Shown in pieces: positions 2,157 to 18,885 of a stretch of 64,000 nt of DNA. The notes under the pieces are model-generated. The model saw nothing but the letters and a program-made list of their open reading frames with translations, did no database searches and was not told where the DNA came from. This DNA is from Escherichia coli. Lineage in GTDB: Bacteria > Pseudomonadota > Gammaproteobacteria > Enterobacterales > Enterobacteriaceae. The stretch is from assembly GCF_003334305.1 (NCBI RefSeq), contig NZ_QOWS01000003.1; one strand, 5' to 3'. A program made the position numbers and the translations under genes. The stretch's first letter is position 1; every line of letters begins with the position of its first letter.

Positions 2157-2184
2157 TTGCATGGTGGCGTGCGCTAGGTATAAT
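2157..2184 (+). promoter_or_regulatory. leuX promoter (sigma70-like)
   Basis: -35 TTGCAT (2157-2162), 16-bp spacer, -10 TATAAT (2179-2184), about 30 nt upstream of the tRNA 5' end. Confidence 0.6.
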
Positions 2185-2213
2185 CCACAACGTTTTCCGC
2201 ATACCTCTTCAGT

Positions 2214-2298: not shown

Positions 2299-2314
2299 CA
2301 TCGTATGCAAATCG

Positions 2315-2339
2315 AGTCGCTCAAGGGCGGCTTTTTTTG
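2315..2339 (+). terminator. Rho-independent terminator after leuX
   Basis: Stem agtcgc / gcggct with a 6-nt loop followed by a run of seven T (2333-2339). Confidence 0.55.
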
Positions 2340-2499
2340 TGCCTGAAATCCAGTATCCGCAAGGCTTTCCTCGCTTTTTCACTCAACCTAAGTCAACCTG
2401 ATTCAATCTACATCAACTTACTGATGCGGGTACAACTGCGGGTATTTCCCGGTTCGATTATGTTTGTACCCACACAGGGCCCTTGAAAGGATACTCATC

Positions 2500-3764
2500 A
2501 TGGCTCTGAGTGATGTGAAGGTCCGTTCGGCTAAGCCGGAAGCAAAAGCCTATAAACTTACTGACGGTGAAGGCATGGTTTTGTTGGTCACCCTAATGGC
2601 TCCAAATACTGGCGACTTCGTTATCGTTTTGGCGGTAAGGAGAAGATGCTGGCGCTGGGGAAATACCCTGAAGTCTCGCTGGTCGATGCCAGAGGTCGCC
2701 GGGATGAAGCCCGTAAGTTGTTAGCTAACGGCGTCGATCCTAGTGAGAACAAGAAAGCTGTTAAGGTAGAGCATGAGCAAGAGGTGATAACGTTTGAAGT
2801 GGTAGCCAGAGAGTGGCACGCCAGCAATCAGAAGTGGTCTGCATCGCATAGCGCTCGTGTATTGAAAAGCCTCGAAGATAATCTCTTTGCTGCTATCGGT
2901 AAGCGGAACATTGCTGATCTGAAGACTCGGGATCTGCTTGTCCCCATCAAAGCGGTGGAGTCGTCTGGGCGTCTCGAAGTCGCTGCTCGTTTGCAGCAGC
3001 ATACTACCGCGATTATACGCTTTGCTGTACACAGTGGATTAATCGACTACAACCCCGCTCAAGAGATTGCTGGTGCGGTTGCTACGGCGAAAAGACAGCA
3101 TCGTGCTGCTCTGGAACTTAACCGCATTCCTGAATTGCTTCAACGCATCTATCACTATTCTGGCAGGCCGTTAACCCGACTGGCGGTTGAACTCACATTG
3201 TTAGTTTTCATCCGTTCAAGCGAGTTGCGTTTTGCTCGCTGGTCAGAAGTTGATTTTGATACTGCCATGTGGACGATTCCGGGAGAACGTGAGCCACTGG
3301 AGGGAGTTAAGCATTCTCAGCGTGGTTCGAAGATGCGGACTCCACATCTTGTACCCTTATCTCGACAAGCTCTCACCATTCTGGAAAAAATCAAAAGCAT
3401 GAGTGGAAACCGTGAGCTGATCTTCGTTGGTGATCACGATCCGCGTAAGCCAATGAGTGAGAATACGCTTAACAAGGCCTTGCGAGTGATGGGCTATGAC
3501 ACGAAAACGGAAGTGTGTGGACATGGTTTCAGGACGATGGCGTGTAGTTCTTTGATTGAATCGGGATTGTGGTCGAGGGATGCAGTAGAGCGGCAGATGA
3601 GTCATCAGGAACGTAGCTCAGTACGGGCGGCTTATATCCATAAGGCGGAACATCTTGGGGAGCGAATGTTGATGCTGCAGTGGTGGGCTGATTATCTGGA
3701 TGCGAATAGAATGGCGGCTATCACTCCATTTGACTATGCAAAGATTAATAGTTCTTTTCGATAA
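2500..3764 (+). pseudogene. intB: P4-family tyrosine integrase with an N-terminal frameshift; longest intact frame 2646-3764
   Basis: ATG at 2500 gives MALSDVKVRSAKPEAKAYKLTDGEGMVLLV and then leaves frame; the expected continuation HPNGSKYWRLRYRFGGKEKMLALGKYPEVSLVDARGRRDEARKLLANGVDPS is in the other frame joined at about nt 2589, consistent with a 1-bp deletion (gtcac where gtccac is expected). Position next to a tRNA 3' end is typical for P4-type integrases. Confidence 0.75.
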
Positions 3765-3820
3765 TTCTATCTAAGTATATGAATATTAACTGTTTTTTAA
3801 TTAAAGGCTTATAACTGAGA

Positions 3821-3854
3821 AGCCTCCGCCCTAATGGGGAGAGGCTTTTGTCTT
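3821..3854 (+). terminator. Possible terminator hairpin after the integrase gene
   Basis: agcctc / gaggct inverted repeat followed by tttgtctt; the loop is long (14 nt), so this is weak. Confidence 0.3.
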
Positions 3855-3965
3855 AACTCAATCAAGAAGGAAATCGTTATGTAAAACTTTATTTTTTTGT
3901 CCGGTATGTGAACGGAAGTGTTAAATATCCACTATGCCTTGTTCGCGCAATGGTCATCCTTTCAA

Positions 3966-5435
3966 TCAAATAACTCCAAGCTTTGCATACAATTCTTTTT
4001 TCTCTTTCATGCTGTTATCCAATGGTGCTACTCGCAATGCCGCTTTCAAATAAGCCGCAGCACCAGAGTAATCACGCATTTGCTCGCAAACTAAAATGAG
4101 TTGGCTTAACACATGGAACTTCATTGGAGTTGTTTGGTTTACTTTCTCCAATAGTACTCTTGCTTCAGAATATTTCGCTTCAAGGCCAAGGATAGATGAT
4201 TCTAAATACATGGTGGCCGCGTTTTCTGCTTCAGCTTGCTTTCGTTGCAACAGCCAGAAATTTGCTTGACTGATATTGCGTAACTGTAGGTTTGCCTTAA
4301 CTATCAACTCGAACAAAGCTGCTGGTTGAGTCAATTTACCCTCAAGTAAGATCGCTTTATTATCTTCTACAACTTTTTCAAAGTCGAATAAGCGATTGGC
4401 GCGATACAAGGCAATAAGTTGCTGATGTAAAGCTTGTAGATCTTTACTGCGGCTATACTCCTGCGACGCTAATTGAGCAGCTTTTTGGTAAGATTGATCG
4501 GACATTGCTTCAAGTACCGCACTTGACCAGTCCTGAGCAGGTTTAGTTTGAAAAACGGGAGCAATAGCACCAACTTTTAATTGCTTAGTGGCAGCAGAAT
4601 CAAATGCATGAATTAAGTCGGAAATAGTGGAAAAGCGATCCTCCGCTCGTTTTTGTAAACAAGTAAGAACCACTTGTTCCAGGTCCGTATGAATAGAGCT
4701 ATTAATCTCTGTCGGAAGCTTGAAAGGTGCGTGGCGCTGAACTTGTGCTGGCGTATCATGGGGCAGCTTTCCTGTCAGCAGCTGGTATAGCAAAACACCT
4801 AAGCTATAGATGTCGCCCAATAGTAGCTCTTCCAGGCTGCCTCTACGGCTATCGACGTTGGAGAACTCTGGGGCCGAATACAGCACAGTCCCGCCATTTT
4901 CACGGGTACGAACGTAAATTTCTTCTGGTAAAGCTGAGCTGCCAAAGTCCGTCAACTTCACCAGGTCCCGCTCTCCAACCAAAATGTTATGTGGCTTAAT
5001 ATCTCCATGAGATATTGGTACTGGTAATTCGGCCAAATAATGCACAGCACAGAGCACTTGACGATATATTCTGAACAACCGTTCATAGGTCTGGCCAAAA
5101 TTACGCTGCCTGTCATCGAGCTTTTGCGCCAGGGTTTGGCTGGGAAAATACTCCATTTCAATATAGAACCATTCATTATCTATACGGCCCATATCAAAAA
5201 TTTGCACAATATTTTCGTGCGGCTCGACGTTTAAAAGCTCTTTACCTTCGGCAAGCTGACGGTCTTCCCGAGTAATATCCTTAGGGATTTTTACTGCGAC
5301 AATTTTTCCATCTTTCAGGCGTTCCGCCCGCCATACCCAGCCATGGCTGCCATCACCAAGGCATTCAAGTAACAGGTATTTGTCACCAAGGCGTTTATTC
5401 GTCCCTGGCAAAAAATGTGCTGATTTTATATTCAC
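3966..5435 (-). CDS. Hanks-type Ser/Thr protein kinase with a C-terminal helical (TPR-like) domain
   Basis: 489-aa ORF with Gly-rich loop LGDGSHGW, catalytic lysine in VAVKIP, catalytic loop HGDIKPHN, DFG, SAPE and DIYSLGVLLYQLLTG; C-terminal half is helical and repeat-like. Last gene of the operon; its start overlaps the upstream gene stop by 4 nt. Confidence 0.88.
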   Translation of the reverse strand: MNIKSAHFLPGTNKRLGDKYLLLECLGDGSHGWVWRAERLKDGKIVAVKIPKDITREDRQLAEGKELLNVEPHENIVQIFDMGRIDNEWFYIEMEYFPSQTLAQKLDDRQRNFGQTYERLFRIYRQVLCAVHYLAELPVPISHGDIKPHNILVGERDLVKLTDFGSSALPEEIYVRTRENGGTVLYSAPEFSNVDSRRGSLEELLLGDIYSLGVLLYQLLTGKLPHDTPAQVQRHAPFKLPTEINSSIHTDLEQVVLTCLQKRAEDRFSTISDLIHAFDSAATKQLKVGAIAPVFQTKPAQDWSSAVLEAMSDQSYQKAAQLASQEYSRSKDLQALHQQLIALYRANRLFDFEKVVEDNKAILLEGKLTQPAALFELIVKANLQLRNISQANFWLLQRKQAEAENAATMYLESSILGLEAKYSEARVLLEKVNQTTPMKFHVLSQLILVCEQMRDYSGAAAYLKAALRVAPLDNSMKEKKELYAKLGVI

Positions 5436-5974
5436 ATCAACACCTCATAGTGAATTCTGTCCAAAACAATCATGTTCAGGTTTTTGATAAATAAAAAGCG
5501 ACTAAATACCACCTCAACATCAGGAGCGGCGATTACTTGGGTACCCGTGGACGAAGTAAAACCCATACGGCATATGTCTTTCAGTTTTTGAGTATCAGGT
5601 ACACCTACTAAGCCTTGGCTCCAGGCACTGAGGACCAGGGTTTTGGGGCAATGATTCCAGCGCTGTGCTGCTTCCAGTAAGTTTTTTAATTTTTCTTCCA
5701 GCTTTTGCTGCCCCTTCGCTGAACCATCAAAGCGTTCAAATTCGATTAAACACACAGGCGATGCAGAAGATTTATGAAACCAGCCCGAGTCAGAGCGAAT
5801 ATCAGCACCAAATGTCCCTGGAGCCGGGCATTCCACTACCGCCATAAATGACTGTTCATGCCCGAATGTATTCCAAACGCTACAGCCCAGGCTGTGGACC
5901 AATACATCCTGGTCCAATAGCTTACCGCTTGCTAAAAGTGGAAATGTCTCATTTACCCAGGCAACTTCAGGCAT
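5432..5974 (-). CDS. Hypothetical protein (about 180 aa), operon partner of the kinase
   Basis: ORF track 5432-6031; the first ATG is at 5974 (complement of 5972-5974), 7 nt after the HerA-like stop and preceded by AAGGTG. No recognisable motif. Confidence 0.7.
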   Translation of the reverse strand: MPEVAWVNETFPLLASGKLLDQDVLVHSLGCSVWNTFGHEQSFMAVVECPAPGTFGADIRSDSGWFHKSSASPVCLIEFERFDGSAKGQQKLEEKLKNLLEAAQRWNHCPKTLVLSAWSQGLVGVPDTQKLKDICRMGFTSSTGTQVIAAPDVEVVFSRFLFIKNLNMIVLDRIHYEVLM

Positions 5975-5981
5975 AGGCACC

Positions 5982-7667
5982 TTAGCCACTGAAAGAGCCC
6001 CAAACACGCAGTACCTCTGGTGATTCACCACCGTGAATTAATGCCTTACTACCAACTTTAACAAGCAGTGGTGCAGGGATTGAACGACCACACACCAAAG
6101 CTTCACCGGTTGATAAACTCGGGAGTTCCTCCAGATCAGCTTTGCTCACCATATCTGATGCTTTAGCTATAAATCGTTGATCGTCAGGGTTCTTTAAGCG
6201 CATCGTAATTAGCGTATTGCACTGAGAGGTCACATCTGAATCTAATTTCGATGGACGCTGGCTCACAATGCCAAATCCAACGCCAAATTTACGACCTTCA
6301 CCAGCGATCTTTTTAATAATGCGGTGACTGACTGCGTTGCCGCCGGCCGGGGCAAAATTATGACCCTCTTCGTAAATGATAAAGCATGGGCGCAGCGGGT
6401 CCGTTTTGCTCGAGGCTGCTTTTAATATTTCACTAGATAACAGTGCACAAATGACTTGCTTAGCGGTATCACTCAAACCTTGTAAGTCAACAACGACTAA
6501 ACGCCCCTGTTGATTGCTCGGGCGACCCACCATTTTGTAAATATCAGTTGGCTCAGCCATTGTTGCGCTGTAAAAACTTTTAGCTTCATTAAGCACACGT
6601 GAAAGCTTCATCGAGGCGACGGCGGCACTACGGCCTGATAACGCCTTCGCCTCAGCTTCAGAAAGGTCGTCCCACTCTTTTAACTCTTCAATACCATCAC
6701 CTAATAAGAAGCGTAGGCGGTTAATATCTCGTGGCTCAGTCTTATCTGCAGAGCGCCAATAACGAATTGCAACATCGAGTACTCGTTGCTGCGGTTCCGT
6801 TAAGCCAGGTAATATTTCAGCAATATCGTCCATTTCAAAATGGTCAAACTGAAGCGCTAATGGCGTATTCTTACTGGCGTATTTATGTTTAAAAGATTCA
6901 TGCTGCGGCGAGTAAACCTGAATACCTGCACCGGCGGCTTGCAGCTTTTCAAAGGTCTGTTTTATCAGTGGCAGTGCTTCTTGATCACGCTTATCGTCAG
7001 TGGCTTCTAAGAAGCTTGAGAATTGCAGATTACCGCCAGCGAGGGCTTTACCGTATTCACCATGTGGGTCAAATACTACTACCGTACCGTTATTAACCGC
7101 AACTAAACGCTCAATAATGCGGCCAACTGTATAAGACTTACCTGAACCCGTCATTGCCAGAACAGCCAAATGCTCAGTGACCAACTTGTTCACGTCAATA
7201 AAAACAGGAACTGTATTCTCACCTTTGTCGTAGCCTACTAAGTTACCTAAGTGCAAACTGGAGTGTTCATTAAATTCGTAAAAATCACTCAAAAACTGAA
7301 AATCGACGGTTTCAACAGCGGTACCCGGGTTAAGCGGGCGACGTGGAATTTTGATTTGACGAGTAACAGGATCGCGGTAACCAACCAGCTCGACCTGAGC
7401 AAACATATTCTCACCAGTTACATTCGCACCGGGCAAAAGCTCAAGCTCGGTTACACCATCGCCAAAGCCGGCGTTATAGAGCATATTAGTACGGCTTATC
7501 TTGGTCACTCGCCCCAGTACGGCGACTTGCCCCTCATCTTTGCGTTCCTGGTGCATAATGCGTACAAACTCACCACGGCGTACTGAAAACGAGTCTTGTA
7601 CAACCATAGTTAACTGACTGGCATCACCAGTGTTACCGACTAATTTACCTAAAACTTTATAAGCCAT
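5982..7667 (-). CDS. HerA/FtsK-superfamily P-loop ATPase (DUF87-like)
   Basis: 561 aa; Walker A LAMTGSGKSYT, then VVVFDPHGEY, Walker B-like FIIYEEGHNF and a C-terminal GVGFGIVSQRPSKLD segment typical of HerA-type ATPases. Confidence 0.82.
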   Translation of the reverse strand: MAYKVLGKLVGNTGDASQLTMVVQDSFSVRRGEFVRIMHQERKDEGQVAVLGRVTKISRTNMLYNAGFGDGVTELELLPGANVTGENMFAQVELVGYRDPVTRQIKIPRRPLNPGTAVETVDFQFLSDFYEFNEHSSLHLGNLVGYDKGENTVPVFIDVNKLVTEHLAVLAMTGSGKSYTVGRIIERLVAVNNGTVVVFDPHGEYGKALAGGNLQFSSFLEATDDKRDQEALPLIKQTFEKLQAAGAGIQVYSPQHESFKHKYASKNTPLALQFDHFEMDDIAEILPGLTEPQQRVLDVAIRYWRSADKTEPRDINRLRFLLGDGIEELKEWDDLSEAEAKALSGRSAAVASMKLSRVLNEAKSFYSATMAEPTDIYKMVGRPSNQQGRLVVVDLQGLSDTAKQVICALLSSEILKAASSKTDPLRPCFIIYEEGHNFAPAGGNAVSHRIIKKIAGEGRKFGVGFGIVSQRPSKLDSDVTSQCNTLITMRLKNPDDQRFIAKASDMVSKADLEELPSLSTGEALVCGRSIPAPLLVKVGSKALIHGGESPEVLRVWGSFSG

Positions 7668-8814
7668 TATTCAATCCCTCATCGAGGCCTGCCAACCACC
7701 CTGCCTCAATATCATTATTCTTTAGTGCCTGGTGTAAACCCTGGCGATAAAACGTAGCAAATTTAGGTAAAATACCAAGCTGTTGATAACCAAGTAATTG
7801 TGGCAACGGCATTGCATTACCTTTGTTTTGCATATCCAGCACCATCAGGCGAGAGGCAACTAAATCGAGATCAGCACTTTTCCATTCTGGTTCGTCACCC
7901 GCTAATTGCACCATTTTTATCTGTCCACCTCGGGCACTACGGAAGTGAAAACCAATTAGACCTTGCTTAGCTTCAATATTGGGTTCAATGCGCTTTTCTT
8001 GTTCAGACAAACGAAATGCGATGGTGCGCGAATAGTTGCCTAAAATGCCATTGATAAATCGCAAATCTCCCACGCCAACCAAACTTTCATCCAGTCCTTC
8101 CAGATTTTGCATCAACTCTTTAGAAAACCCATCAGATGCTAAAATTTGTTTGCGTCCTTGTTCGGTACGTAAATCTTGTTTGGCGATACTTACAATGGCA
8201 CTAAAGCGCTCAGCCAAAATGCTCGCAAGTACTACACCATTTTGATTCCAGGGAAAAATTCTGGAGCGATGGTTTTGCCAAAAAGTTTCTATCACTTGTC
8301 TGGTTTTTTCGTACTCTTGTTTATGACGGACATTTCTCTCCAGCGGAGCCATATCCCGTGCTAAAAACAACGGCGTATCCAGCAAAATTAAATCGCCAGG
8401 CTCATAACCTAAAAGTTTTTTCTCAACTAACTGATAAGCCTGACGAATTTCAATTAAATCAAGCCGTTTACGCTGAGCTTCAAAATCAATATCATCCAGT
8501 TCTGATACCGAGTCGCTACCCACCGTGCTGACTTTATTGTCATCTATTAACAAATCTGTGCGCACTGCTGCACTGGCATAAATAAAACCACCCAATACCT
8601 TGTCTAAGCACGATTTAGTCGCAATACCGGCTACGCGTAAATTAACAATTGTGGGCTTGGGGACCGCTTTCACTAAGCCAGCATCACGGAATAGCGGCGC
8701 CACTTGCTCAATATCACGGACCTGTTTAAGCAAGCGTCCTGCACTTCCCGGTAAGCGAAGCTGGCTATCGATGGCGAGCGATTGCGCTAAATTCATCGTT
8801 TTGTTCTCATTCAT
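7657..8814 (-). CDS. Hypothetical protein (about 386 aa)
   Basis: ATG at 8814 (MNENKTMNLAQ...) lies 2 nt after the stop of the upstream gene; its 3' end overlaps the HerA-like start by 11 nt. No confident motif. Confidence 0.75.
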   Translation of the reverse strand: MNENKTMNLAQSLAIDSQLRLPGSAGRLLKQVRDIEQVAPLFRDAGLVKAVPKPTIVNLRVAGIATKSCLDKVLGGFIYASAAVRTDLLIDDNKVSTVGSDSVSELDDIDFEAQRKRLDLIEIRQAYQLVEKKLLGYEPGDLILLDTPLFLARDMAPLERNVRHKQEYEKTRQVIETFWQNHRSRIFPWNQNGVVLASILAERFSAIVSIAKQDLRTEQGRKQILASDGFSKELMQNLEGLDESLVGVGDLRFINGILGNYSRTIAFRLSEQEKRIEPNIEAKQGLIGFHFRSARGGQIKMVQLAGDEPEWKSADLDLVASRLMVLDMQNKGNAMPLPQLLGYQQLGILPKFATFYRQGLHQALKNNDIEAGWLAGLDEGLNNGL

Positions 8815-8816
8815 GC

Positions 8817-9665
8817 TTATAGCGTTCCTGTGTGTAGCTGCTCGCCAAGTAATGGGGCATAAGCCCAATATTGCGAGGCTTGTAGGCATGTTTTACCGGT
8901 AGCTGTTATGCCCGCGTCGTCGATAAAATCGTGCTGCCGCAACATCTCACCCCGCTTGACAATATCAAGGCTATTAACATCAAACATCAGCTTAACCGCA
9001 TTATGCTCAGACAACGCTTGTAAGTTCATGCCACCGCCAGCGTAGAGTAATAGCAATACAACTAGATCGTGCTTATCTGGCGTGTAGTCAGTTGATGGCG
9101 CTTTAGGTTCGATTATTCGTTCAGCAATGCCTGCATGGTCCACAAACCAATTCAACCAGCTCACCAGGAGCTCACTATGATCGAGTAAAGTCAGCGACCA
9201 CAAAGGTAACGTGGTAAAGGCTAATAGCCCACTGTTGCTGTGTTTTCGTATGTAGCGGGTATGCACTACATCACCGGCCTGGTGCTGGTAGCGATCTGCG
9301 CTGCCAGTAAAGCCAGCAATAGCCTGGTCTGTTTCACTGGCTAGCAAAGCGGTTAGCCCCGGTTCCTGCCCCCTCAAGCTCGCTGGTACTAACTGCCAAT
9401 CCAGTGGATAGGGCAATTGCGCTAATAAGGTAAATTGTTCTGCTTTCAGGTTTATTACCAAAGCGGCACAACCTGCCTGCATAGCCCAGTGATACAGGTG
9501 CTGCATAGTATTAGCGTCAGTCAACTCTTCTGCTTGCACTATTAACAAACCGCTGGCTGGCGGCGAGCTAATCCAATCCTTCATTAAGGGGGTAGCCCCC
9601 GCAACAGTTTGCAAAAAACGGCCTTTACGATTACTGGCCAGTGCCGCAGATAAATAACGACTCAT
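8817..9665 (-). CDS. Hypothetical protein (about 282 aa)
   Basis: ATG at 9665 (MSRYLSAAL...), 10 nt after the stop of the 1428-aa gene; the longer frame to 9692 needs a non-ATG start. No recognisable motif. Confidence 0.72.
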   Translation of the reverse strand: MSRYLSAALASNRKGRFLQTVAGATPLMKDWISSPPASGLLIVQAEELTDANTMQHLYHWAMQAGCAALVINLKAEQFTLLAQLPYPLDWQLVPASLRGQEPGLTALLASETDQAIAGFTGSADRYQHQAGDVVHTRYIRKHSNSGLLAFTTLPLWSLTLLDHSELLVSWLNWFVDHAGIAERIIEPKAPSTDYTPDKHDLVVLLLLYAGGGMNLQALSEHNAVKLMFDVNSLDIVKRGEMLRQHDFIDDAGITATGKTCLQASQYWAYAPLLGEQLHTGTL

Positions 9666-9675
9666 CGCGTCACCT

Positions 9676-12600
9676 CTACAAACCAGTGGCAAAGGTAAGG
9701 CGCATTTTTACAATGCCTTTGTCTACAAGTCCTTTCTGTTGCTCAGGTGTTAACACGGGTTCCTGATTTTGGCTCAAAGCCTTATAAATCGGTTGCCAAT
9801 CCGCCAGTGTTAAGCCTGTATCATTTAATATTTGCTCACCTTGACTCTGCCATTTGGCCTGGGTGCTTTCACACACCTGTTGAAGTTCTCTGACACCCAA
9901 ATTGCTCACATCCTCCAGAGTCAACGCTGCTGGTTCCGCTTGCTTTTGAGAAGCCAATAGCGGTTTTAATAACGGCAGCCAGCTGTTTACCTGTGCGATG
10001 GAGTTGCGTCTTACTTGGTTTAGACGCTCTTCAATTTTAAGTAGCTGGCCTTGAATCGGTGTAAGTTGACCGCGTGCCGGTTTTAAAAGCTCTTCTGGTA
10101 AATCCCGTAACGATGAAAACTGCCCATTGCGCAAACTGTTTTGCATACTTTGACGCTTGCTCTCTGCATCACTGGGGAGATCGGCAATAGCATCTTCAAT
10201 GAGCTGTAATTTCATTACCAGTTTTGGTAGCTCTGCAATGTCATCGGCGAACTGATACTCAGCCGTGGCGCTACTAAGCCATTCTTGCAGTTGTTGTGCA
10301 CGTAGTTTTTGCTCTGTGAGGTTATTAACCAGCTTACTAAATCGTTCTTTGCAGTTGCGGTAGCTGGACAAAATATGCCCCTGAATCTCCGCTATCGGCA
10401 ACTGTTGATCATTGTGCAGGTTTAAACCCACTTCTTGCGCTAAGGCTGAAAGCTTGTCATGCGCTCTACCTAAATCGAGTTTACGCAGGTAATGCAGTAA
10501 GGTATCGCTATCTGCTTGCTGCTCTTTTCGGCCAGTGGCACTGCTGGTATCGTCTTTTAACGCTCCATCTAAAATATGACCTATGGTGCGCAGCGTGTTG
10601 GTGTACAGACGTTTCGGAAAATTCGTCAGCGGGGCACACTCTGTTTCAACATCTATGATTAAATCAACGAGTCGGTTGTTGATACGCTCAGCGCTGCACT
10701 CAACAAACTCGGCAAATAAACAGGCCTGTTCAATCCGTTGATAAAGCGAGGTCGTTTTGTCTTCTAAGCTGAGAATATGGGCATCTTTTAGCATAGGCCT
10801 GGAACTATTAAGCGGTTTAACCTTTGCTACCAGCTCCAGCACTTCAGCGCGTTTGTGGATAAGCCCTGCCAATACTTTCGTGTCGTTGGCCTCGACCATA
10901 TCAGCCAATTGTTCTTCTTGCTGTTTGAGCACGTTAAATAGCGATTGTGCTTTTTCCAGCTGCTCTTTAGCTTCCACGGTGACGAAACCCAGCTTATTTT
11001 TACCCAGTGGCGCGAACATTTCATTAATGCGTGCATAACCATACACGCGGCTCATGACTTCCACATTGGCTGCATAGCTGCCCATATCGTTACCACGGAA
11101 CCAGTTTTGCGCTTCTCTAATGGCATTTTCTAAGCGGGAGCGCGGGTAGTGCTCCCAAATTGCCTGTTTTTCTGTTGGATTGGTTAAAGTGAGTAAGTTC
11201 AGCTCTCCACACCACCACATCCAGTCATTAAACACGCCTTTGGCGGTAACACTCGTTTCAGCCACATAGGCGAAATAAAACTGTTGCTTAAAGCCTTCGA
11301 ATTGCCACTTGTGCTTTTTATTAGGGTGAGCAATACGGGCTAAAAATAATGGGATCTGCGCCTGGCTTCGCTGCACATTATTAAGTTCAGTAAATAGCCC
11401 GGCATGTTCATCGGCAGTGTAACCTTTGGCAATATAGCTGCCCGGCACCTTAAGTTTATCCAACAAGCTGCTCAGCTCATTCACTGGCACGCCGTGTTGC
11501 TGCTGTAAATCGAGAATGCCATTTAACTCAGGGTGAGCAATGGCCAGCTGATACCAGCCTTTAAACAACAGGTCTCGGTCATTCGGTGATAATTTACCAT
11601 CTACCTTTAACGGCCAGGCAATTAAACCGCGCTGCTGCAAACGCTGGCGCCACTTGTGAATGGCATCCGTGGCAAAGGTTGTCAGGGCATGCAGCTTGTT
11701 TTTGAATTTCGCGGTAAAGCTGTCGGCAGTTAAATTCACGCCGTGCAACTGACATGCTGCCAAACTTAAGCCAATACGCTCTAACTGGTCTGCTTCGCTT
11801 GGGTTGACATAATGCAGCAGTATCGCATCACGCAACTCATTTCTTTCATCCAGTCGGCTGTATTGCTCCATGAGATGTGCAGAAGCAGTTAACGCTAATA
11901 CTGGCGTGCGACCATTTTGGTGGCTGTGGTTTGCCGCAAAGGTGTGAAGATTGTTCAGCTCAATTAGGTTGCTGACCCAGGCAAACAAGGCTTTACCTTC
12001 TGGGTGAAGCTTAAATCCATCCAGGGTAAGTAAACCACCCTGGCGGCCACGGGGCTCGGTTAAAATGGCCAAAGGTGCATCGTCGCTGCCCGCTTTATTA
12101 CTCAGCAAGTTTTCATCATAGGTCCAGTTGTTATCAAGTAATCTCACAAAGCCCGTTACACGGGCTAATGCCTTGATGAGCGGCTTCTGGCTACTTTGTT
12201 TGCTAAGTTCACTCATTGCCTGTTCATGAGCGTCGCCCATGGCGGGATCTTTAAAAATCAGTGAGTTTTGCTGGGCACTGCGATAGCGCAAATCCAGGCG
12301 CAGTAACATCGCCACACTGGGGCCAATATGCGTTGCTTCGCTGGCGTCCAGTTCGGTAGTTTCACCCACTAGCTTGTGCCATAAGGCATCGGCAGCGAAT
12401 TCAATCGCTGGGTGGTCATACAGCAAGCTGAGTAAGTATTTAAACTCACCTTTTGACAGAGGTAGTAATACCGCGCCTTTATCGCCGCTTGCGGCTTGTT
12501 CTTTAATTGAAAAAGTACGCAGGTTATCCAGCAAAGTATCTAAGTTCAGCGCTTGATCTACTGCAGGGTAGTACCATTCATCTTTATCGCGGCGGAATTT

Positions 12601-13962
12601 GGCTTGCTCCAGGGCTTGTCGGCACTGTAGGCGGTCAATGCTCAGTTTGCGGTAATGAGCGGCTATGGGTTCCAGATCTTCGTTTTTCAGCGCCAGCAAT
12701 TCTGTGGCATAGCCCATTTCAGCTAAGCGCACGGGTAATTGGCCGTAGAGCAAACTACGACATTCGGTCAATAGTGCCTGGTCGCGAGTTTGAATGCCTT
12801 CTATCGCGCCTTTATCCAGCACATGCCTGGCTACGCGGCCAGAGCCTGCCAGCACAGCTTCAAATAAATCGCCCACATCCTTGATACTGCGGCCTGCTTG
12901 TTGGTATTGGCTCAGCACTGCATCCACATTAGCCATGACCACGTTAAACCAACCGAAGTTGGCACCACTCATGGCGTATGCAGCTTCCACTAAACCAGCA
13001 GGGTAATTAAAACCCAGCTTGCCGTCTTTTAAGAGGCTTGCCACATAGTCTGATACATCGGCAAAGGCATTATGCTCAAGTTCCACTAACTCAAAGCGGC
13101 GTGCGACCGATTGAATTTCGCGCAATTGCTGGCCAAGCAGTGGTGAACACAGCGCTACATAGCGCAACCATGGAAGTTTACGGCGAGGGTCTTCCTCTTT
13201 AATTGCTTTACCAATCAGGCGAATGGCCTGGCCATCGAGGCGTTTATTTTGTTCATCTTCCAGGCCAAAGGTGGCGGCTTCTGCAACGGTTTCCAGCTCA
13301 TCCAGCACCACCAACATATACTGCACGCCAAAGCTCTTTAATACTTTATAGGCGGCTTGCACCAAACTGACTACCAGCGTTTGGTCAGTATAGAGGTCTT
13401 CTTCGCTGTGGTTGGCGTTCAGCTGTAAGGCATCTGCTAACAGTTCAGATTTAAAGCCAAATGGCATTAAGCGTTCATAGGCTTGTTTGGCAATTTCACT
13501 TTGAATCGATCCATCAAAGGTTTGGGTGGCCAGTGGTAATAGCGCCTGATATAAACCAAAAGCAAACCAGTTATCCGAGTTTTGATAATCTGATGCCACT
13601 TGCGAGTAGCGAATGTAGAGCGCCAGGTATTTGTCTTGCGTGTCGCGATTAAACAGCTGCTTATCGTGCAGTTGGCCTTGTTCGTCGCGGACAAACCAGC
13701 CCCTTGAACAGTCGTTAATTTGTGCAACCAATTCATGGCCTAAACGTGATTTACCCCGACCCCATTCGGCTTCGACGGCAAACACATGGGCAAAGCGATC
13801 ATCGTCGTGATCCACCGTATGCAAAAAGGTTTGAAAGCGTTTAAAAAAGCGGCTCTGGCCCACTAACGGGTCGCGAGGTGGATAATCTGATACGCCCGTC
13901 GCCGCCCAGCGATGTTGTTTTGCCAGGCTATCAACCATCTGTTCGTTTAATTCAAAACTCAT
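9676..13962 (-). CDS. Giant protein (1428 aa) with an N-terminal KAP-type P-loop NTPase domain and about 1200 aa of helical extension
   Basis: Walker A AEWGRGKSRL (the GxWGxGKS pattern of KAP NTPases) near residue 65 and Walker B MLVVLDELE about 150 residues later; the remainder is long and uninterrupted. ATGA overlap with the upstream gene. Confidence 0.85.
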   Translation of the reverse strand: MSFELNEQMVDSLAKQHRWAATGVSDYPPRDPLVGQSRFFKRFQTFLHTVDHDDDRFAHVFAVEAEWGRGKSRLGHELVAQINDCSRGWFVRDEQGQLHDKQLFNRDTQDKYLALYIRYSQVASDYQNSDNWFAFGLYQALLPLATQTFDGSIQSEIAKQAYERLMPFGFKSELLADALQLNANHSEEDLYTDQTLVVSLVQAAYKVLKSFGVQYMLVVLDELETVAEAATFGLEDEQNKRLDGQAIRLIGKAIKEEDPRRKLPWLRYVALCSPLLGQQLREIQSVARRFELVELEHNAFADVSDYVASLLKDGKLGFNYPAGLVEAAYAMSGANFGWFNVVMANVDAVLSQYQQAGRSIKDVGDLFEAVLAGSGRVARHVLDKGAIEGIQTRDQALLTECRSLLYGQLPVRLAEMGYATELLALKNEDLEPIAAHYRKLSIDRLQCRQALEQAKFRRDKDEWYYPAVDQALNLDTLLDNLRTFSIKEQAASGDKGAVLLPLSKGEFKYLLSLLYDHPAIEFAADALWHKLVGETTELDASEATHIGPSVAMLLRLDLRYRSAQQNSLIFKDPAMGDAHEQAMSELSKQSSQKPLIKALARVTGFVRLLDNNWTYDENLLSNKAGSDDAPLAILTEPRGRQGGLLTLDGFKLHPEGKALFAWVSNLIELNNLHTFAANHSHQNGRTPVLALTASAHLMEQYSRLDERNELRDAILLHYVNPSEADQLERIGLSLAACQLHGVNLTADSFTAKFKNKLHALTTFATDAIHKWRQRLQQRGLIAWPLKVDGKLSPNDRDLLFKGWYQLAIAHPELNGILDLQQQHGVPVNELSSLLDKLKVPGSYIAKGYTADEHAGLFTELNNVQRSQAQIPLFLARIAHPNKKHKWQFEGFKQQFYFAYVAETSVTAKGVFNDWMWWCGELNLLTLTNPTEKQAIWEHYPRSRLENAIREAQNWFRGNDMGSYAANVEVMSRVYGYARINEMFAPLGKNKLGFVTVEAKEQLEKAQSLFNVLKQQEEQLADMVEANDTKVLAGLIHKRAEVLELVAKVKPLNSSRPMLKDAHILSLEDKTTSLYQRIEQACLFAEFVECSAERINNRLVDLIIDVETECAPLTNFPKRLYTNTLRTIGHILDGALKDDTSSATGRKEQQADSDTLLHYLRKLDLGRAHDKLSALAQEVGLNLHNDQQLPIAEIQGHILSSYRNCKERFSKLVNNLTEQKLRAQQLQEWLSSATAEYQFADDIAELPKLVMKLQLIEDAIADLPSDAESKRQSMQNSLRNGQFSSLRDLPEELLKPARGQLTPIQGQLLKIEERLNQVRRNSIAQVNSWLPLLKPLLASQKQAEPAALTLEDVSNLGVRELQQVCESTQAKWQSQGEQILNDTGLTLADWQPIYKALSQNQEPVLTPEQQKGLVDKGIVKMRLTFATGL

Positions 13963-15260
13963 AACGACGATCCTTGAAGGTTTATTCTATTGGCGGCGCG
14001 TTTTTTATTGGCATAGCAGTTTTGCGCCAGTTGCTTAATGGTCCGTTGTAACGTTTGGCTTTTGTAGCCAAATAGTGGTGCTAACGGCAGGCTATAACAG
14101 GCATCGCTGAAGCTTGTATGAATTCGATATTGGCCGGCCTCTCCACGACCCGCCTCGGTAAATTGCCAGATTTTTTTTGCCAACAATTCGGCAATGAATG
14201 AGCTCAGGACGCGGTTTAGGCGGTTGATGCTTTCCGTGTTCGCATCGAGTGCCGGGTAGAGGGGTATATTGAGCTCACCGAGCAGAAGCACAAGAAACTC
14301 GGCCAAACTACCCAGACTCACCTCATCACCTTCAATGCCCTGTACCGCCACATTTATTTGACCGGGGGCAAAGGCATTTTGCCCGGCAGGTAAGGTGAGC
14401 AACAAACCGCCACGTTGCTCGGCAGCCCAGGCATCTTGCACAAAGATAATTAGACTGAGTAAAAATAACCAGGGCTGTTGGGCGAATAGCTCGGTAAGCG
14501 GCATGTTGTCATGACCCGAGCGGGACACCAATAACCAATCGGCATTGGGTTTAAGGTTATGTTCATCAAGCAAGGTATTAGGGAGTGCTAACAACCGCCC
14601 ACTACACCAGTTATTTGTCAGTTGTTTTGCGGTGACATCCACCGCTTGTATAGGTGCCGGTGGTTCATTTTGTTCGCTCACGGTAAACAAGGTATAGCTG
14701 GTGCGCAAAATACGACATAGCGCGGGAATGGCAGCATTGTCGTTTAGGCTATGACCGAGCAAATCGCGTTCGGTTTGTGCCAGAGGGCCGGCAATGATTT
14801 GCGGCGTGGTGGCAGTGCTTTCCAGCTGGGCTAAGACCCATTCACTGGCATTGCCCAGTTGCTGAATGAGTTTAACCAATACCATTGTGTCACTCATCGT
14901 GCCTGCTTCCTGGCAGCGAGCGGCGGCTAAATTGATCCAATGTTGGCGAACATCTGGGTTTAAGCCCAACAACGCTAATTGCCATTCACCTGACTGGCTT
15001 AAATCGTTAAAGGCATCAAGCAATGGTGCAGTGAGGCTAAAGGCGCTAACGATATCCGTTTCAGCGTCGTTCTTTTTCGGCTGTATTATTGGTTGTAGCA
15101 GTGACCTAAGGGCAGGCACAGCCGCCAATAACAATGCTGCTTTGTTGGCGTTCAAACCACCTTGTTGCCAAAGCTGCAGGCAGAGGTTAAGTGCCGCTTC
15201 GCTATTTACGGGGTCGTTATATTGCCTGGTTGTACTGCTGTCCGTGCCCCTTGTCTCCAT
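13959..15260 (-). CDS. Hypothetical protein (433 aa)
   Basis: Complete ORF starting METRGTDSS; 2-nt gap to the upstream HsdS-like gene and 4-nt overlap with the downstream gene. No recognisable motif. Confidence 0.78.
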   Translation of the reverse strand: METRGTDSSTTRQYNDPVNSEAALNLCLQLWQQGGLNANKAALLLAAVPALRSLLQPIIQPKKNDAETDIVSAFSLTAPLLDAFNDLSQSGEWQLALLGLNPDVRQHWINLAAARCQEAGTMSDTMVLVKLIQQLGNASEWVLAQLESTATTPQIIAGPLAQTERDLLGHSLNDNAAIPALCRILRTSYTLFTVSEQNEPPAPIQAVDVTAKQLTNNWCSGRLLALPNTLLDEHNLKPNADWLLVSRSGHDNMPLTELFAQQPWLFLLSLIIFVQDAWAAEQRGGLLLTLPAGQNAFAPGQINVAVQGIEGDEVSLGSLAEFLVLLLGELNIPLYPALDANTESINRLNRVLSSFIAELLAKKIWQFTEAGRGEAGQYRIHTSFSDACYSLPLAPLFGYKSQTLQRTIKQLAQNCYANKKRAANRINLQGSSL

Positions 15261-15262
15261 CT

Positions 15263-16741
15263 TTACTCTTCAGCCTCCGCTTGCGCCGCCTCTTCCAGCA
15301 AACTGTATAACTCATCCACATCGCTAAATAGCGGTGTGGCACCTTCAATGGCATAACCCTCAGCGCTCAGTTTGCTTAAAATCGCTTGATCAAAGCTGCT
15401 GTCGCCATCTTCCAGGGCTTGTTGGGCCTGGATTAGTTGTTGCTCAGTCAGTTGGCCTTCGATTAATGACTCAACTAGAGTTTTGGCAGATGCTGTTAAC
15501 TTTTTTGCATATGCTGCCGTAGTAACGGCTAGTCTCAGCTTACTTCCTATTTCTCTATTCTTCGCTATGTCAATCGGAATCAGAATATTTAACAGGTTTT
15601 CTGAAGTCACTTTTGGTACAACGCTGCCAGTAGTCACACCTTTCCAACACGGAAAGTGTTTATCCAGGAACCTACAAATAGACTCAATATCATATTCATC
15701 TTTTACCTTTAAAACCCAAACATGGTTGTTTGCCCAAAACTTTCCATCAGCTACATTTGCACAGCCAATAGAGCCATCTTGCGCAATAATCAGATATTTA
15801 CCGTTGAAATTGAATTCGGTATGAGTATCTATTGGACCTGATGCGCCATAGTAAAAATATGGTCCGGGTACTCTGTCTTCCGATTTAATAGGGTCGCCAC
15901 ATTTGCATTTACTAATGAAATTAGATAGTTTTGATGAATTCCTAAAGGTCATTTGACTATCGGCCGCACGTGCAAACTCAGGAGCTAAAGACACTGCTGA
16001 TAATACCTGTTGTTTCATTCTTCTAGGTTTCAATGTTAATGAATCAACAAGGTTGAAGTGAAATAAATCTTTAATTTTTCTATCAGCCATTCCTTCAAGT
16101 CGTTTCGCCCAAGCGCGTAACTGCTCGGCTTGGCGAACTTTATCCCCGATGTATTTTTGGGCTAGAGGTAAAACTTTAGGAACCGCTAGCGAGCGGACAC
16201 TTGGGAAGTCAATTGCAGGGCGAGTTGCGCCATATGCTTCCTTCCAGATCGCTACTTGTCCGGTTTTGCTATTCAAATATGCCACCAAGAAATAGGCGTC
16301 AACTTTTTTGGGATCGGGCTTGAATCTGACTGAGTGCTGACTAATGTTGGCCGGTAGATGTTTAGCTGACACAACAGCCGATTTACCAAATTTTGCACCA
16401 GTAATCGTAAGTAAAACGTCGCCATCCACTAATCGGCTGCGCTTTAATTTTTCATCATCTTCATCGTTAATAAAAACAGCTTCTTCAGCTTGCAAGAACA
16501 TTTCTTCAACTTCAGAAGTGCGATAAAACTTAACACGGCCTTTTTCTAAATAATTTGCTCCTAAAGGTGTTGCGCCACTAGCCACCCCGCGCTTTGAATC
16601 AATTACCGCTTCTAGGGGCAAAGCACCTAGGTTGTCTTTTATCTTATTAATTTGTCTTTCAAATCGCGGTTGATAGTGCCAAGGATCAATCCGCCTTTCA
16701 GACAATTGTTCGGGTGTTCTTTTAAAAATAGTTGCCATCAC
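15263..16741 (-). CDS. Type I restriction-modification specificity subunit-like protein (HsdS-like, two target-recognition domains)
   Basis: Two repeated TRD-end segments (GATRPAIDFPSVRSLAVPKVLPLAQ and GVTTGSVVPKVTSENLLNILIPIDIAKNREIG) plus a helical C-terminus, resembling HsdS. Start is GTG at 16741 or ATG at 16738, overlapping the methyltransferase stop. Confidence 0.75.
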   Translation of the reverse strand: MMATIFKRTPEQLSERRIDPWHYQPRFERQINKIKDNLGALPLEAVIDSKRGVASGATPLGANYLEKGRVKFYRTSEVEEMFLQAEEAVFINDEDDEKLKRSRLVDGDVLLTITGAKFGKSAVVSAKHLPANISQHSVRFKPDPKKVDAYFLVAYLNSKTGQVAIWKEAYGATRPAIDFPSVRSLAVPKVLPLAQKYIGDKVRQAEQLRAWAKRLEGMADRKIKDLFHFNLVDSLTLKPRRMKQQVLSAVSLAPEFARAADSQMTFRNSSKLSNFISKCKCGDPIKSEDRVPGPYFYYGASGPIDTHTEFNFNGKYLIIAQDGSIGCANVADGKFWANNHVWVLKVKDEYDIESICRFLDKHFPCWKGVTTGSVVPKVTSENLLNILIPIDIAKNREIGSKLRLAVTTAAYAKKLTASAKTLVESLIEGQLTEQQLIQAQQALEDGDSSFDQAILSKLSAEGYAIEGATPLFSDVDELYSLLEEAAQAEAEE

Positions 16742-18885
16742 TCACCCCGCTTATAAGCCGATACAATCTTATCCAGATCGTTTGCGACACCGGCGTTATA
16801 GTCTTCGATATTGTTTTTCACCACATAACCCAATGTTTCAGCCACTGCCATAAACACGTCGGTTTGTGGCTCGGGCAAAAATTGCTCTGGCTGGTTGGGG
16901 TTAGCATGGCGTTTTTGTAAATACAAAATCGAGGTTTTGGCCCCCGTACCGGAGAGTTTAAAGCAGTCGCTCGGCAATGAAATTACTGCTTTTACAATAG
17001 CTTTACCGCCAACAAACTCGCCGGTTTTTTCGTCTTTTTTCCCCATAATGTACTCACGGACATAACGGTCGCCGGAGTTACATAAAATACCATCAGGCAG
17101 CACTATTAACAGGCGGCCACCGGGTTTAAGCAGTTGCAGGCAGCGGTCGATAAAAAGTACTGCTGGGTCAATAGTGGCACCTACCGGTTGCCAGTTGCCC
17201 TTGCTATCGGGCTTGCTGCCCAGCGCGAGCCCTGCGGTTGTAGGCTGCAGGCTGTAAAACGGCTTTTTATCAGTCCCGCCCGTTCTGCGCAAATCGGTAC
17301 GGTAGCCCGCCCATTTAGGCTCGCCGTTTTCATCCAGCTCTAAATCACCGATATCCTGCCACTTCATTTTCACGTGGTCATACCAGGCGTTGTAGCTATC
17401 AACGACTTTTTTGGTCGGACGAAAACCACCGAGCACTTGCTCCATATTGGCTTCGTAATTGGCTTTTGAGTTTTGACCATTTTTGCCTTTATCAAATTTA
17501 GGCGTACCGAACGGCGGGTTGGTGCAAATCAGGTCAAAGCTATTCGGCTTCAGAGCGTTAGTAGTGAGTGAGTTGTCGGTATAAAAAATCTGCGCTTTGG
17601 GGGCACCTTGCAATGCCATATTCACGCGGGCCAGCATTACCATGCGTGGTGCAGCATCGGCACCGGTAAATGCACAGTCGCGTAATTTTTGTTTCAATGA
17701 TTCTTTTTTATCGTCGGCCAGCACCAGCTTAAAATCGATCCATTTATCAATCTGGCTTAACGCCACCGAGCCAAAACCAAAGGAGCCACAGGTGGGGTCG
17801 CAGAAACGAAAATCGCCATTGGCTAAGCGCGATCGCATTTCATCGTCATCGTCGATGTCGTGCATAGCAATTTCTAGCATGGCCTGTTTTACTGGGTTTG
17901 GTGTTAAATAAACGCCAAGGCCACCTTTGGATTCAAAGTTAGCGCGTAGGAATACATCAAACACTCTGCCTAGTAAATCTCCTGACACATCAGCCAACGT
18001 GCCGTGTTCTTTCGCGATTTTACCGTCGTTGGTTTTTACCGGACCCAGGTTTTGTATTGCTTCCAGCAAATCCTGATAGTTTTTCGCAACAGACAGTCGC
18101 AGGTGTGTTTCTTTACTAAAGATGGGGTTACGTGAGCCATCATCTGAGATCACAACGTAGTTTTCGTGGCTTTTAAATTCCTCAAAGGCGGCTTTGATTT
18201 GGGCAACGGCTTTATCGCCGTGGCTCTCCACATATTGCCAATCAAAGACATCACGAAAACGCAGGGTATTTCCCTCATCATCTTTAAAGGTAAGGTCTTC
18301 ATCGTGATGCAGGCGGAAAGTTTCTAAAAACAGAAGCTTAGCTACTTCTTCAATAATGTCGTTCTTGTCGTTTACCTTGTCTTTGGTAACGCGATAAACA
18401 TTTTCATGGAAGGCATCAAATCGCTGCATTAAGCGTGTATAAACACGCATCGACCAGCGAAAGGTTGGATCACGCTCCATGCGATCAAAGCTACGTAATT
18501 CTTCCAGACCAGGCAGGGTATCTGCACCGTGGGTACCGTCAGATCCATCGGCACCGAACAAGGCCAAAATACGTTGGTTCAAGCCATCGTCCACAACGGC
18601 ATATACTGGCCAGTCACCTTCGATATCACTTAACAGCTGATAGGCTAAATCATCAAACTTTGCAGTGTCAGCGGCGTATTCCCAATGGCCTTCTGTCAGC
18701 GCAATCAACATGACTGGTGGCGTTAAGTTGCCTTCAACCAGGCCTTGAATGAGACCAGCCTTGGCGAATTCATGCTCGGGTAATTCGACCAATGGCTGAG
18801 TAAACTCGGAGTGCTGTTTGACCAGTTTATTGAACAGTGCTTCTAGCTGCTGTTGCGGGTCTTGTTTTTTTGCTTCTTTTGCCAT
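16738..18885 (-). CDS. N6-adenine DNA methyltransferase (HsdM-like) with an extra N-terminal region of about 350 aa
   Basis: 715 aa; AdoMet motif I-like DPTCGSFGFG and catalytic motif IV NPPFG; the domain order resembles the type I M subunit. Confidence 0.85.
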   Translation of the reverse strand: MAKEAKKQDPQQQLEALFNKLVKQHSEFTQPLVELPEHEFAKAGLIQGLVEGNLTPPVMLIALTEGHWEYAADTAKFDDLAYQLLSDIEGDWPVYAVVDDGLNQRILALFGADGSDGTHGADTLPGLEELRSFDRMERDPTFRWSMRVYTRLMQRFDAFHENVYRVTKDKVNDKNDIIEEVAKLLFLETFRLHHDEDLTFKDDEGNTLRFRDVFDWQYVESHGDKAVAQIKAAFEEFKSHENYVVISDDGSRNPIFSKETHLRLSVAKNYQDLLEAIQNLGPVKTNDGKIAKEHGTLADVSGDLLGRVFDVFLRANFESKGGLGVYLTPNPVKQAMLEIAMHDIDDDDEMRSRLANGDFRFCDPTCGSFGFGSVALSQIDKWIDFKLVLADDKKESLKQKLRDCAFTGADAAPRMVMLARVNMALQGAPKAQIFYTDNSLTTNALKPNSFDLICTNPPFGTPKFDKGKNGQNSKANYEANMEQVLGGFRPTKKVVDSYNAWYDHVKMKWQDIGDLELDENGEPKWAGYRTDLRRTGGTDKKPFYSLQPTTAGLALGSKPDSKGNWQPVGATIDPAVLFIDRCLQLLKPGGRLLIVLPDGILCNSGDRYVREYIMGKKDEKTGEFVGGKAIVKAVISLPSDCFKLSGTGAKTSILYLQKRHANPNQPEQFLPEPQTDVFMAVAETLGYVVKNNIEDYNAGVANDLDKIVSAYKRGE

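Follow-up and report, generated by a model that had tools for sequence, protein, structure and literature searches.

We examined a 64,000-nucleotide (nt) stretch of Escherichia coli DNA (contig NZ_QOWS01000003.1 of RefSeq assembly GCF_003334305.1), here called the window, and found that positions 3966–19322 hold a ten-gene operon on the minus strand, which is probably an E. coli ortholog of the system named MADS-like in Pseudomonas aeruginosa, lying in the leuX defense island and using methylation to discriminate self from foreign DNA. That the locus is a defense system of some kind is very likely, and the specific way in which we propose that it restricts DNA, through a module centered on its HerA ATPase, is offered tentatively. 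An original prediction made from the sequence of the window had described seven of these genes as a candidate undescribed defense system.

The operon and its MADS-like counterparts

The seven predicted genes, namely a Ser/Thr kinase, a HerA-like ATPase, a giant KAP-type NTPase and four unknown proteins, are all present as minus-strand open reading frames between 3966 and 15260, and their order and tight spacing were borne out by RefSeq, which annotates the same seven coding sequences with identical start codons in the corresponding, 100% identical region of E. coli A7. The idea of a co-transcribed multi-gene module in a defense island was likewise supported. The seven-gene boundary was wrong, however, because a small 128-amino acid (aa) gene, a methylase gene (M) and a specificity subunit gene (S) are colinear with the seven genes in about 30 genomes belonging to several phyla and continue the same tight spacing, making a unit of ten. 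M and S had been set apart as upstream restriction-modification (R-M)-like genes, and their colinearity across loci makes them integral to the unit.

In order of transcription, the genes correspond to madl2 through madl11 of the MADS-like system, and encode a small 128-aa protein (18936–19322; the madl2 homolog and first gene of the conserved unit, by synteny and Pseudomonas homology); a 715-aa HsdM-like N6-adenine DNA methyltransferase (M; 16738–18885; PADLOC MTase_I); an HsdS-like specificity subunit with two target-recognition domains (S; 15263–16741; PADLOC Specificity_I); a 433-aa protein (13959–15260); a 1428-aa P-loop NTPase recognized by its Walker motifs, with a long helical C-terminal part, equivalent to the madl6 “ATPase” (9676–13962); a 282-aa protein (8817–9665); a 385-aa protein with a predicted NurA fold (7657–8814); a 561-aa HerA-type hexameric ATPase/translocase (5982–7667; NCBIfam, PADLOC and PDB profile matches); a 180-aa protein with enzyme-like invariant residues (5432–5974; by orthology); and a 489-aa Hanks-type Ser/Thr kinase whose C-terminal half is helical and TPR-like (3966–5435; PADLOC mad6). 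No fold was assigned to the 433-, 282- and 180-aa proteins, the first two of which were placed by synteny. The junctions measure −4 nt (kinase/180-aa), +7 (180-aa/HerA), −11 (HerA/385-aa), +2 (385-aa/282-aa), +10 (282-aa/1428-aa), −4 (1428-aa/433-aa), +2 (433-aa/S) and −1 (S/M), with touching or overlapping stops and starts extending through M and S; M and the 128-aa gene are 50 nt apart, and the ATG of the latter overlaps the mcrC stop by 4 nt. Scans for consensus promoters and terminators scored below chance and were uninformative.

Far from being undescribed, this gene set matches, position by position, a system that already has a name. In their Supplementary Notes, Maestri et al. (bioRxiv 10.1101/2023.03.30.534895) described in silico only an 11-gene “MADS-like” system (madl1–11) in P. 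aeruginosa islands, in which madl1 is a WYL helix-turn-helix regulator, madl3 an N6-methylase, madl4 an S subunit, madl6 an ATPase, madl9 a helicase/translocase and madl11 a kinase, with four further proteins lacking a significant prediction and with Type IV R-M and integrase genes nearby. P. aeruginosa orthologs of the E. coli genes exist, and a Pseudomonas locus (L039) reads BrxR/WYL, 132 aa, N6_Mtase, S, 422, 1428, 275, 380, DUF87/HerA, 192 and Pkinase, continuing with Mrr and an integrase. The E. coli order (128, M, S, 433, 1428, 282, 385, HerA, 180, kinase) is that of L039 minus the WYL gene. When the E. coli proteins were compared by tblastn with a Pseudomonas frederiksbergensis locus (L013), identities were 71% for M, 26% for S, 35% for the 433-aa, 54% for the 1428-aa, 28% for the 282-aa and 69% for the 385-aa protein, 87% for HerA, 49% for the 180-aa protein and 59% for the kinase. 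Thus ten of the eleven published genes match in content and order, and Type IV R-M and integrase genes are neighbors here as well. Because the ordinal gene positions fit the published madl layout and every protein is orthologous to its Pseudomonas counterpart, we are highly confident, as judged from the published description and this orthology, that the locus is MADS-like and orthologous to madl2–madl11. Surveys of E. coli and P. aeruginosa hotspots make no mention of the system.

The missing member is madl1, the WYL/BrxR regulator, which is absent as the first gene in E. coli, where mcrC is found instead. Since the gene upstream also differs in Vibrio and Fibrobacter, this regulator seems to be an exchangeable accessory. 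By lineage, the slot upstream of the madl2-like gene is occupied by BrxR/WYL in Pseudomonas, by YhcG in Fibrobacter (L041, 4784–7855), by McrC in E. coli, and in Vibrio rotiferianus (L042, 5854–7786) by a 509-aa protein without an assigned family that overlaps madl2. The slot may therefore hold exchangeable regulators or accessory nucleases.

The original prediction had proposed examining gene-neighborhood conservation, and on this point its seven genes did co-occur in a fixed order, together with M, S and the 128-aa gene. With a profile of the 385-aa protein we fetched 34 loci from contigs representing one genome per species, and mapped all of the E. coli proteins onto them. The order M-S-433-1428-282-385-HerA-180-kinase was kept wherever the contig reached, in Enterobacterales, Vibrio, Pseudoalteromonas, Psychrobacter, Acinetobacter and Pseudomonas, as well as in Nitrosomonas, Methylobacter, Roseateles, Thiodictyon and Fibrobacter; a Desulfobacteraceae contig reached only the six distal genes, in identical order. 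A gene order shared by 34 species-level genomes goes far beyond what chance would produce. None of the sampled loci carried the seven genes without a nearby methylase. Across these loci, HerA was the most conserved (79–99% identity to E. coli), followed by M (63–97%), the 385-aa protein (59–98%), the kinase (50–96%), the 180-aa (47–97%), the 1428-aa (40–98%) and the 433-aa (32–88%) proteins, while the 282-aa protein (26–92%) and S (26–87%), the most variable gene between species, reached the lowest values. In the Pseudomonas locus L039, the 132-aa protein encoded between the BrxR and methylase genes shares 35% identity (E = 5e-20) with the 128-aa protein, and homologs of 120–137 aa lie directly upstream of M in Fibrobacter and Vibrio. 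Close relatives of the operon proteins are also recorded in Klebsiella, Vibrio, Pectobacterium, Proteus, Enterobacter and Shigella.

Methylase, HerA/NurA-fold pair and the remaining components

M matched the PADLOC MTase_I model over its full length (1577 bits), its orthologs carry Pfam N6_Mtase, and its NPPF motif is kept in 26 of 26 orthologs. S matched PADLOC Specificity_I at 8e-164. The best NCBIfam matches of the two proteins were MAD2 for M (111.6 bits against a cut-off of 720) and MAD5 for S (90 bits against a cut-off of 400), and both also matched the corresponding PADLOC models, mad2 and mad5. The whole S gene found matches in only 36 E. coli genomes, one half of it (query 1–901) in many others, and short conserved pieces only in the remainder, while the genes downstream of S were at least 99% identical in 242 E. 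coli records. Because S matches partially where its flanking genes are near-identical, it bears the signature of swapped target-recognition domains, which would give several specificities within E. coli. No match to an HsdR or REase_I model was found among the ten operon proteins in PADLOC or NCBIfam, and none is annotated in RefSeq. The operon thus appears to combine an active-looking, type I-style methylase with a fast-diversifying S, and to do so without HsdR.

The HerA-like ATPase and the Hanks-type kinase named in the original prediction were both confirmed. HerA matched NCBIfam helicase_HerA (6e-59), PADLOC HerA (1e-56) and PADLOC mad8 (7e-26), contains DUF87, and keeps its GSGKS, YEEGH and SQRPS motifs in 37–38 of 38 sequences. 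Its best PDB match was the HerA of the Thermococcus HerA-NurA complex (9X1L, 4e-48), with other solved HerAs (Sulfolobus 4D2I and further HerA/DUF87 chains) behind at ~1e-20 to 1e-33 and TdpA at 2e-7. The kinase matched PADLOC mad6 best among PADLOC models (1e-45) and NCBIfam MAD6 at 117 bits against a cut-off of 460; Pfam Pkinase is present in its orthologs, and the VAVK, HGDIKPHN, DFG and APE motifs are retained by all 33 of those compared, by which it looks active. It also matched many models of the PD-T4-6 single-gene defense kinases (1e-39), PglW and MkoA, and the TPR Pfam matches seen in a distant ortholog were all faint or weak.

The original prediction had recognized no nuclease, and here the gene directly beside herA, which overlaps it, proved informative: the 385-aa protein has the predicted fold of the nuclease NurA. 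It is labeled “NurA domain-containing” in UniRef. A profile search of 1.84 billion representatives returned only 123 relatives, some at 15–28% identity. An AlphaFold2 model built with 25 close orthologs only reached a predicted local distance difference test (pLDDT) score of 46, while a 35-sequence alignment that included distant relatives gave a pLDDT of 89.7 and a predicted template modeling score of 0.86. Foldseek agreed with a NurA fold for this model, and when the distant relatives were compared with Pfam, NurA ranked first among the families, with a weak signal in 2 of 35. Structure prediction thus gives the 385-aa protein a NurA (RNase H-like) fold. Because this model has a NurA fold and HerA is nearest to a NurA-partnered HerA, the operon is predicted to hold a HerA/NurA-fold pair. 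In MADS-like as published, the neighbors of the helicase are hypothetical proteins, whereas here the madl8 equivalent can be given a predicted fold.

For the other proteins, sequence families were of less help. Profile searches, which the original prediction had suggested for all seven of its proteins, assigned the kinase and HerA, and left the 180-, 282-, 433- and 1428-aa proteins without a significant family. The 128-, 180-, 282-, 385-, 433- and 1428-aa proteins had no significant match in NCBIfam, PADLOC, PHROGs or PDB sequence profiles, and all of these except the 128-aa protein, which was not scanned against Pfam, had no significant match there either. PDB profile searches with ortholog alignments of the unassigned proteins gave only coiled-coil or chance matches. 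Relatives outside the system were not detected for the 128-, 180-, 282- and 433-aa proteins, and word-index homolog searches with the NTPase N-terminus and the 180-aa protein returned orthologs only, with no fusions and no named domains.

In the 1428-aa protein, the Walker A (W67-G-x-G-K71-S/T-R) and Walker B (D221-E222-x-E224) motifs are invariant, even in 24%-identical variants. The KAP-type label was not established, since residues 58–224 matched Pfam KAP_NTPase at an independent E-value of only 0.54; the “WGxGKS” Walker A resembles that of KAP, and only the Walker motifs are secure. No match was found in PADLOC or NCBIfam, and a PDB profile search gave only coiled-coil noise over residues 1180–1295. 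This part of the protein (residues ~1180–1295; window 9676–10400) gave weak profile matches (E ~3e-3) to influenza hemagglutinin HA2, which we take to reflect a long helical segment of coiled-coil type rather than homology. The 180-aa protein has orthologs in all loci and in two distant variants described below (hmmsearch, 3e-20 and 2e-17), among which H27, S32, E48, D62, W65, E78-F-E80-R81, K91 and K95 do not vary even where identity falls to 20%. This residue pattern looks like that of an enzyme active site and loosely resembles PD-(D/E)xK.

These two variants, each of which holds a distant relative of the 385-aa protein, separate what is constant from what is exchanged. The first (L043; GCA_975970845.1, CDLULV010000004.1, 1–20414) is a divergent bacterial variant at ~25% identity with the order S, 431, YhcG, 366, 1329, 295, NurA-like, HerA, 217 and kinase-TPR, in which a YhcG nuclease gene is inserted between the S-side genes and the NTPase; directly after it come a CBASS operon (patatin, SMODS, E2/ThiF) and Mrr. 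The second (L044; ENA ERZ27230166, k119_132017, 1998–16391) lies on an acidic, archaeal-looking metagenome contig and has the order 571, 458, 1332, 297, NurA-like, HerA and 193, with no kinase and no type I M and S; two N6_N4 methylases adjoin its core, one of them on the opposite strand. By BLASTP and hmmsearch, orthology holds in both variants for the large NTPase, the NurA-like protein, HerA and the ~190-aa protein, while the ~290-aa and ~430-aa proteins correspond in position alone, and no sequence similarity was detectable between the 282-aa protein and its positional equivalents of 295–297 aa. Since this comparison keeps one set of genes and varies the methylase, kinase and regulator, we define from it an invariant five-gene core, consisting of the NTPase, the ~290-aa protein, the NurA-like protein, HerA and the ~190-aa protein, and regard the methylase type, the kinase and the upstream regulator as the exchangeable parts.

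Candidate mechanism and alternative readings

Several known systems resemble this operon in part. Canonical MADS shares four component types with it as best or near-best matches (M with MAD2, S with MAD5, the kinase with MAD6 and the HerA-type ATPase with MAD8). MADS also has Mad3 (AbiEii/ATPase-Toprim), Mad4 (DUF4276) and Mad7 (DptG-like), none of which is in this operon, whereas the operon has the 1428-aa NTPase, the protein with the predicted NurA fold and four orphan proteins that MADS lacks. The work of Maestri and colleagues on MADS was reportedly published later in Cell Host & Microbe, in 2024. The authors’ MacSyFinder model makes MAD6, MAD7 and MAD8 mandatory (Maestri et al., 10.1101/2023.03.30.534895), and here the mad6 and mad8 matches were partial or weak, and no operon protein matched PADLOC mad7, even at E ≤ 5 for the unassigned proteins. 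We therefore rejected canonical MADS, given that MAD7 is absent, the scores fall under the NCBIfam equivalog cut-offs and the gene order differs. The original prediction was to fall if its genes proved to belong to an already cataloged system, and this is partly the case: there are matches to mad6, MAD2, MAD5 and mad8, but all of them lie below the cut-offs for membership.

Likewise methylation-linked, and equipped with a Ser/Thr kinase and a large P-loop ATPase, is BREX type 2/Pgl, and a BrxR-type regulator heads the Pseudomonas version of the operon; HerA and NurA-like proteins, however, are not components of BREX. We rejected this assignment, as there were no PADLOC matches to PglZ, PglX or BrxC and the similarity to PglW (1e-19) covered only the kinase domain. 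The DndFGH “HerA/FtsK capture” and BREX-related capture systems (PMC10853773, PMC12839542) were rejected as well, since nothing in them matches this gene set. The view that the locus is none of BREX/Pgl, Sir2-HerA, DUF4297-HerA or Stk2 was therefore upheld. What the operon shares with type I R-M is a methylase of the HsdM kind and an HsdS with two target-recognition domains that are swapped between strains; it differs in having no HsdR helicase-nuclease. Because HsdR is missing, restriction by this operon would have to come from the HerA-centered module.

For that module the closest parallels are the HerA-NurA end-resection complex (PDB 2YGK, 9X1L, 7F6D) and TdpAB. The former pair is found here in a methylase/kinase operon and not beside Mre11-Rad50, and the 385-aa protein shares only ~11% sequence identity with NurA. 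As described in An et al. (Nat Chem Biol 2025, as cited in PMC12914056; PDB 8WET), TdpAB restricts DNA that lacks the phosphorothioate mark made by TdpC. The same account, which reports Tdp from extremophilic bacteria, has that mark made by TdpC alone, where this operon has a type I-like N6-methyladenine methylase with an S subunit, and includes in Tdp neither a kinase nor a counterpart of the 1428-aa NTPase.

On this basis, we propose that M and S would mark host DNA by methylating adenines within a bipartite site, and that unmethylated incoming DNA would be recognized by the M-S complex and/or by the large NTPase with the 433- and 282-aa proteins. Recognized DNA would then be passed to a HerA hexamer docked on the NurA-like protein, and be threaded and degraded, by analogy with archaeal HerA-NurA end resection and with the action of TdpAB on DNA lacking phosphorothioate. 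The cutter could be either the NurA-like protein or the 180-aa protein, in which case the former would be a HerA-docking scaffold. The kinase may be an accessory regulator or a back-up effector; we give it this accessory role because one variant, L044, is without it.

The argument for defense comes from the McrBC and phosphorothioate-dependent endonuclease genes that share the island, from the Mrr or CBASS genes that adjoin the system in other genomes, from BrxR in Pseudomonas, and from the patchy spread of the system and S domain swapping within E. coli. The argument for a methylation logic comes from the best NCBIfam matches of M and S and from MADS itself, which phages escape epigenetically, by becoming methylated, and in which mad5, the S-subunit gene, could not be deleted alone (Maestri et al., 10.1101/2023.03.30.534895). 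Methylation-based discrimination of self from non-self is likely common to MADS and this operon.

A number of points weigh against the proposal. The MADS-like match was made to the authors’ verbal description and not to their madl sequences, and we found no experimental test of MADS-like in any host in the searchable literature, so that its role in defense is something that we infer. No component that reads methylation status was recognized in the operon. Since L044 has unrelated N6_N4 methylases and no kinase, the presumed coupling of methylase to effector appears modular. The cutter is a further difficulty. NurA proteins have the motif (A/G)-(V/I)-D-G in the middle of β1, carrying an essential aspartate. 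In the 385-aa protein, mid-β1 reads G63-I64-A65-T66, and Ala65 aligns by eye with the β1 aspartate; D146, at the end of β4, is mostly kept, and across the 35 aligned family members (down to 15% identity) no acidic position reaches 90% conservation. Because the canonical β1 aspartate thus seems to be replaced, by this by-eye mapping, the NurA-like protein may be catalytically dead and serve as a non-catalytic scaffold, and it is for this reason that we propose the 180-aa protein as a cutter, although the nuclease idea for that protein comes only from a motif read by eye.

A degenerate NurA-like protein would also suit a different reading, in which the operon acts by abortive infection: the kinase would be the effector, as in Stk2 and PD-T4-6, phosphorylating host or phage proteins and halting growth, while sensing or scaffolding would fall to HerA, the large NTPase and the NurA-like protein, and methylation would be of minor importance. 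The kinase matches to PD-T4-6, PglW and MkoA and the full conservation of its catalytic motifs are in keeping with this, and HerA is an activating scaffold in both Sir2-HerA and DUF4297-HerA. We nonetheless think abortive infection unlikely, given that L044 keeps the NTPase, 297-aa, NurA-like, HerA and 193-aa genes without a kinase, that M and S are strictly linked and S diversifies, as fits discrimination by DNA sequence, and that escape from MADS is epigenetic (Maestri et al., 10.1101/2023.03.30.534895).

The same variant raises the question of whether two independent neighbors are being read as one, an orphan or incomplete type I M and S pair next to a methylation-free HerA/NurA/kinase module. 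Because the L044 core adjoins unrelated N6_N4 methylases, one on the opposite strand, it does appear independent of this particular M and S pair. In nearly every bacterial locus sampled, however, M and S are colinear with the seven genes, down to 26–63% identity, with junctions that overlap or measure 2 nt; in no locus were the seven genes found without a nearby methylase, and the unit is also accompanied by the madl2-like gene that precedes M. We regard two separate systems as quite improbable. That the operon is instead a mobile-element machine for DNA repair, replication or segregation, built on HerA-NurA resection and maintaining the leuX island, is highly improbable: its HerA is closest to archaeal repair HerA, its partner has a predicted NurA fold, and HerA/FtsK ATPases also serve conjugation and segregation (PMC10853773), but the 385-aa gene had no tblastn match among either PLSDB plasmids or INPHARED phages, the neighbors are restriction and CBASS genes with a BrxR-type defense regulator heading the Pseudomonas operon, and a diversifying S with a linked methylase has no obvious role in repair.

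A bolder form of the HerA-centered restriction that we favor is possible, though less likely than not. A type I-style M and S pair without HsdR would use a co-opted, archaeal-type HerA/NurA-fold DNA-threading machine in which the NurA-like protein is degenerate, the 180-aa protein cuts, and the 1428-aa NTPase and the kinase exert control; the five-gene core would then be a portable restriction cassette that pairs with unrelated methylases, as in L044.

Island setting, distribution and significance

The window covers the E. coli leuX island. The tRNA-Leu(CAA) gene leuX (2214–2298, plus strand; ARAGORN) is followed by a 372-aa island integrase (2646–3764, plus strand; a tyrosine recombinase beside tRNA-Leu in RefSeq), which carries an annotated frameshift in strain A7. 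Up to position 30000, no direct repeat (12 nt or longer) of the 3′ end of the tRNA was seen that would mark the far end of the island, which looks old and immobilized. Directly upstream of the operon and co-directional with it lie the type IV restriction genes mcrC and mcrB (19319–22730, minus strand; RefSeq), then a phosphorothioate-dependent endonuclease of the SBD-HNH type (22900–23829; RefSeq), and beyond it core nan/fim genes. No dnd or ssp modification genes were seen near this endonuclease in the stretch examined, and it is probably a stand-alone type IV enzyme.

The seven-gene stretch was found in 257 of 5426 complete E. coli genomes (4.7%), with at least 80% coverage in 208. McrBC occurs in 1015 of the 5426, mostly without the operon (~700 further genomes), and we therefore rejected it as an operon component. 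About 289 of the McrBC genomes (at least 99% identical) also carry the 128-aa gene, while in the rest similarity is found only from ~60 nt before the mcrC stop, at ~95% identity. Because the similarity of other genomes breaks within the 3′ end of mcrC, at ~19381, the operon is fused to McrBC there. In strain D97-1, only a truncated 128-aa gene lies between McrBC and the integrase, as if the operon had been deleted. The 90%-identity cluster of the 128-aa protein includes ADT77934.1 of E. coli W (ATCC 9637), and this standard laboratory strain may carry the system.

The locus is thus not a new system, being the E. coli member of the named, uncharacterized MADS-like kind, which is among the largest defense operons known. 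What is added here is the predicted NurA fold, the definition of the five-gene core, which separates it from the exchangeable methylase, kinase and regulator parts, and a tractable host, since presence in ordinary E. coli makes the system amenable to coliphages and standard genetics. The predicted NurA fold of the HerA partner would tie bacterial methylation-based immunity to the archaeal end-resection machine and to TdpAB, and provides a concrete effector hypothesis. If correct, the proposal would explain how a type I-like methylase could restrict DNA without HsdR, and would make the operon the second case, after Tdp, in which a HerA/NurA-type machine serves as a restriction engine that responds to modification.

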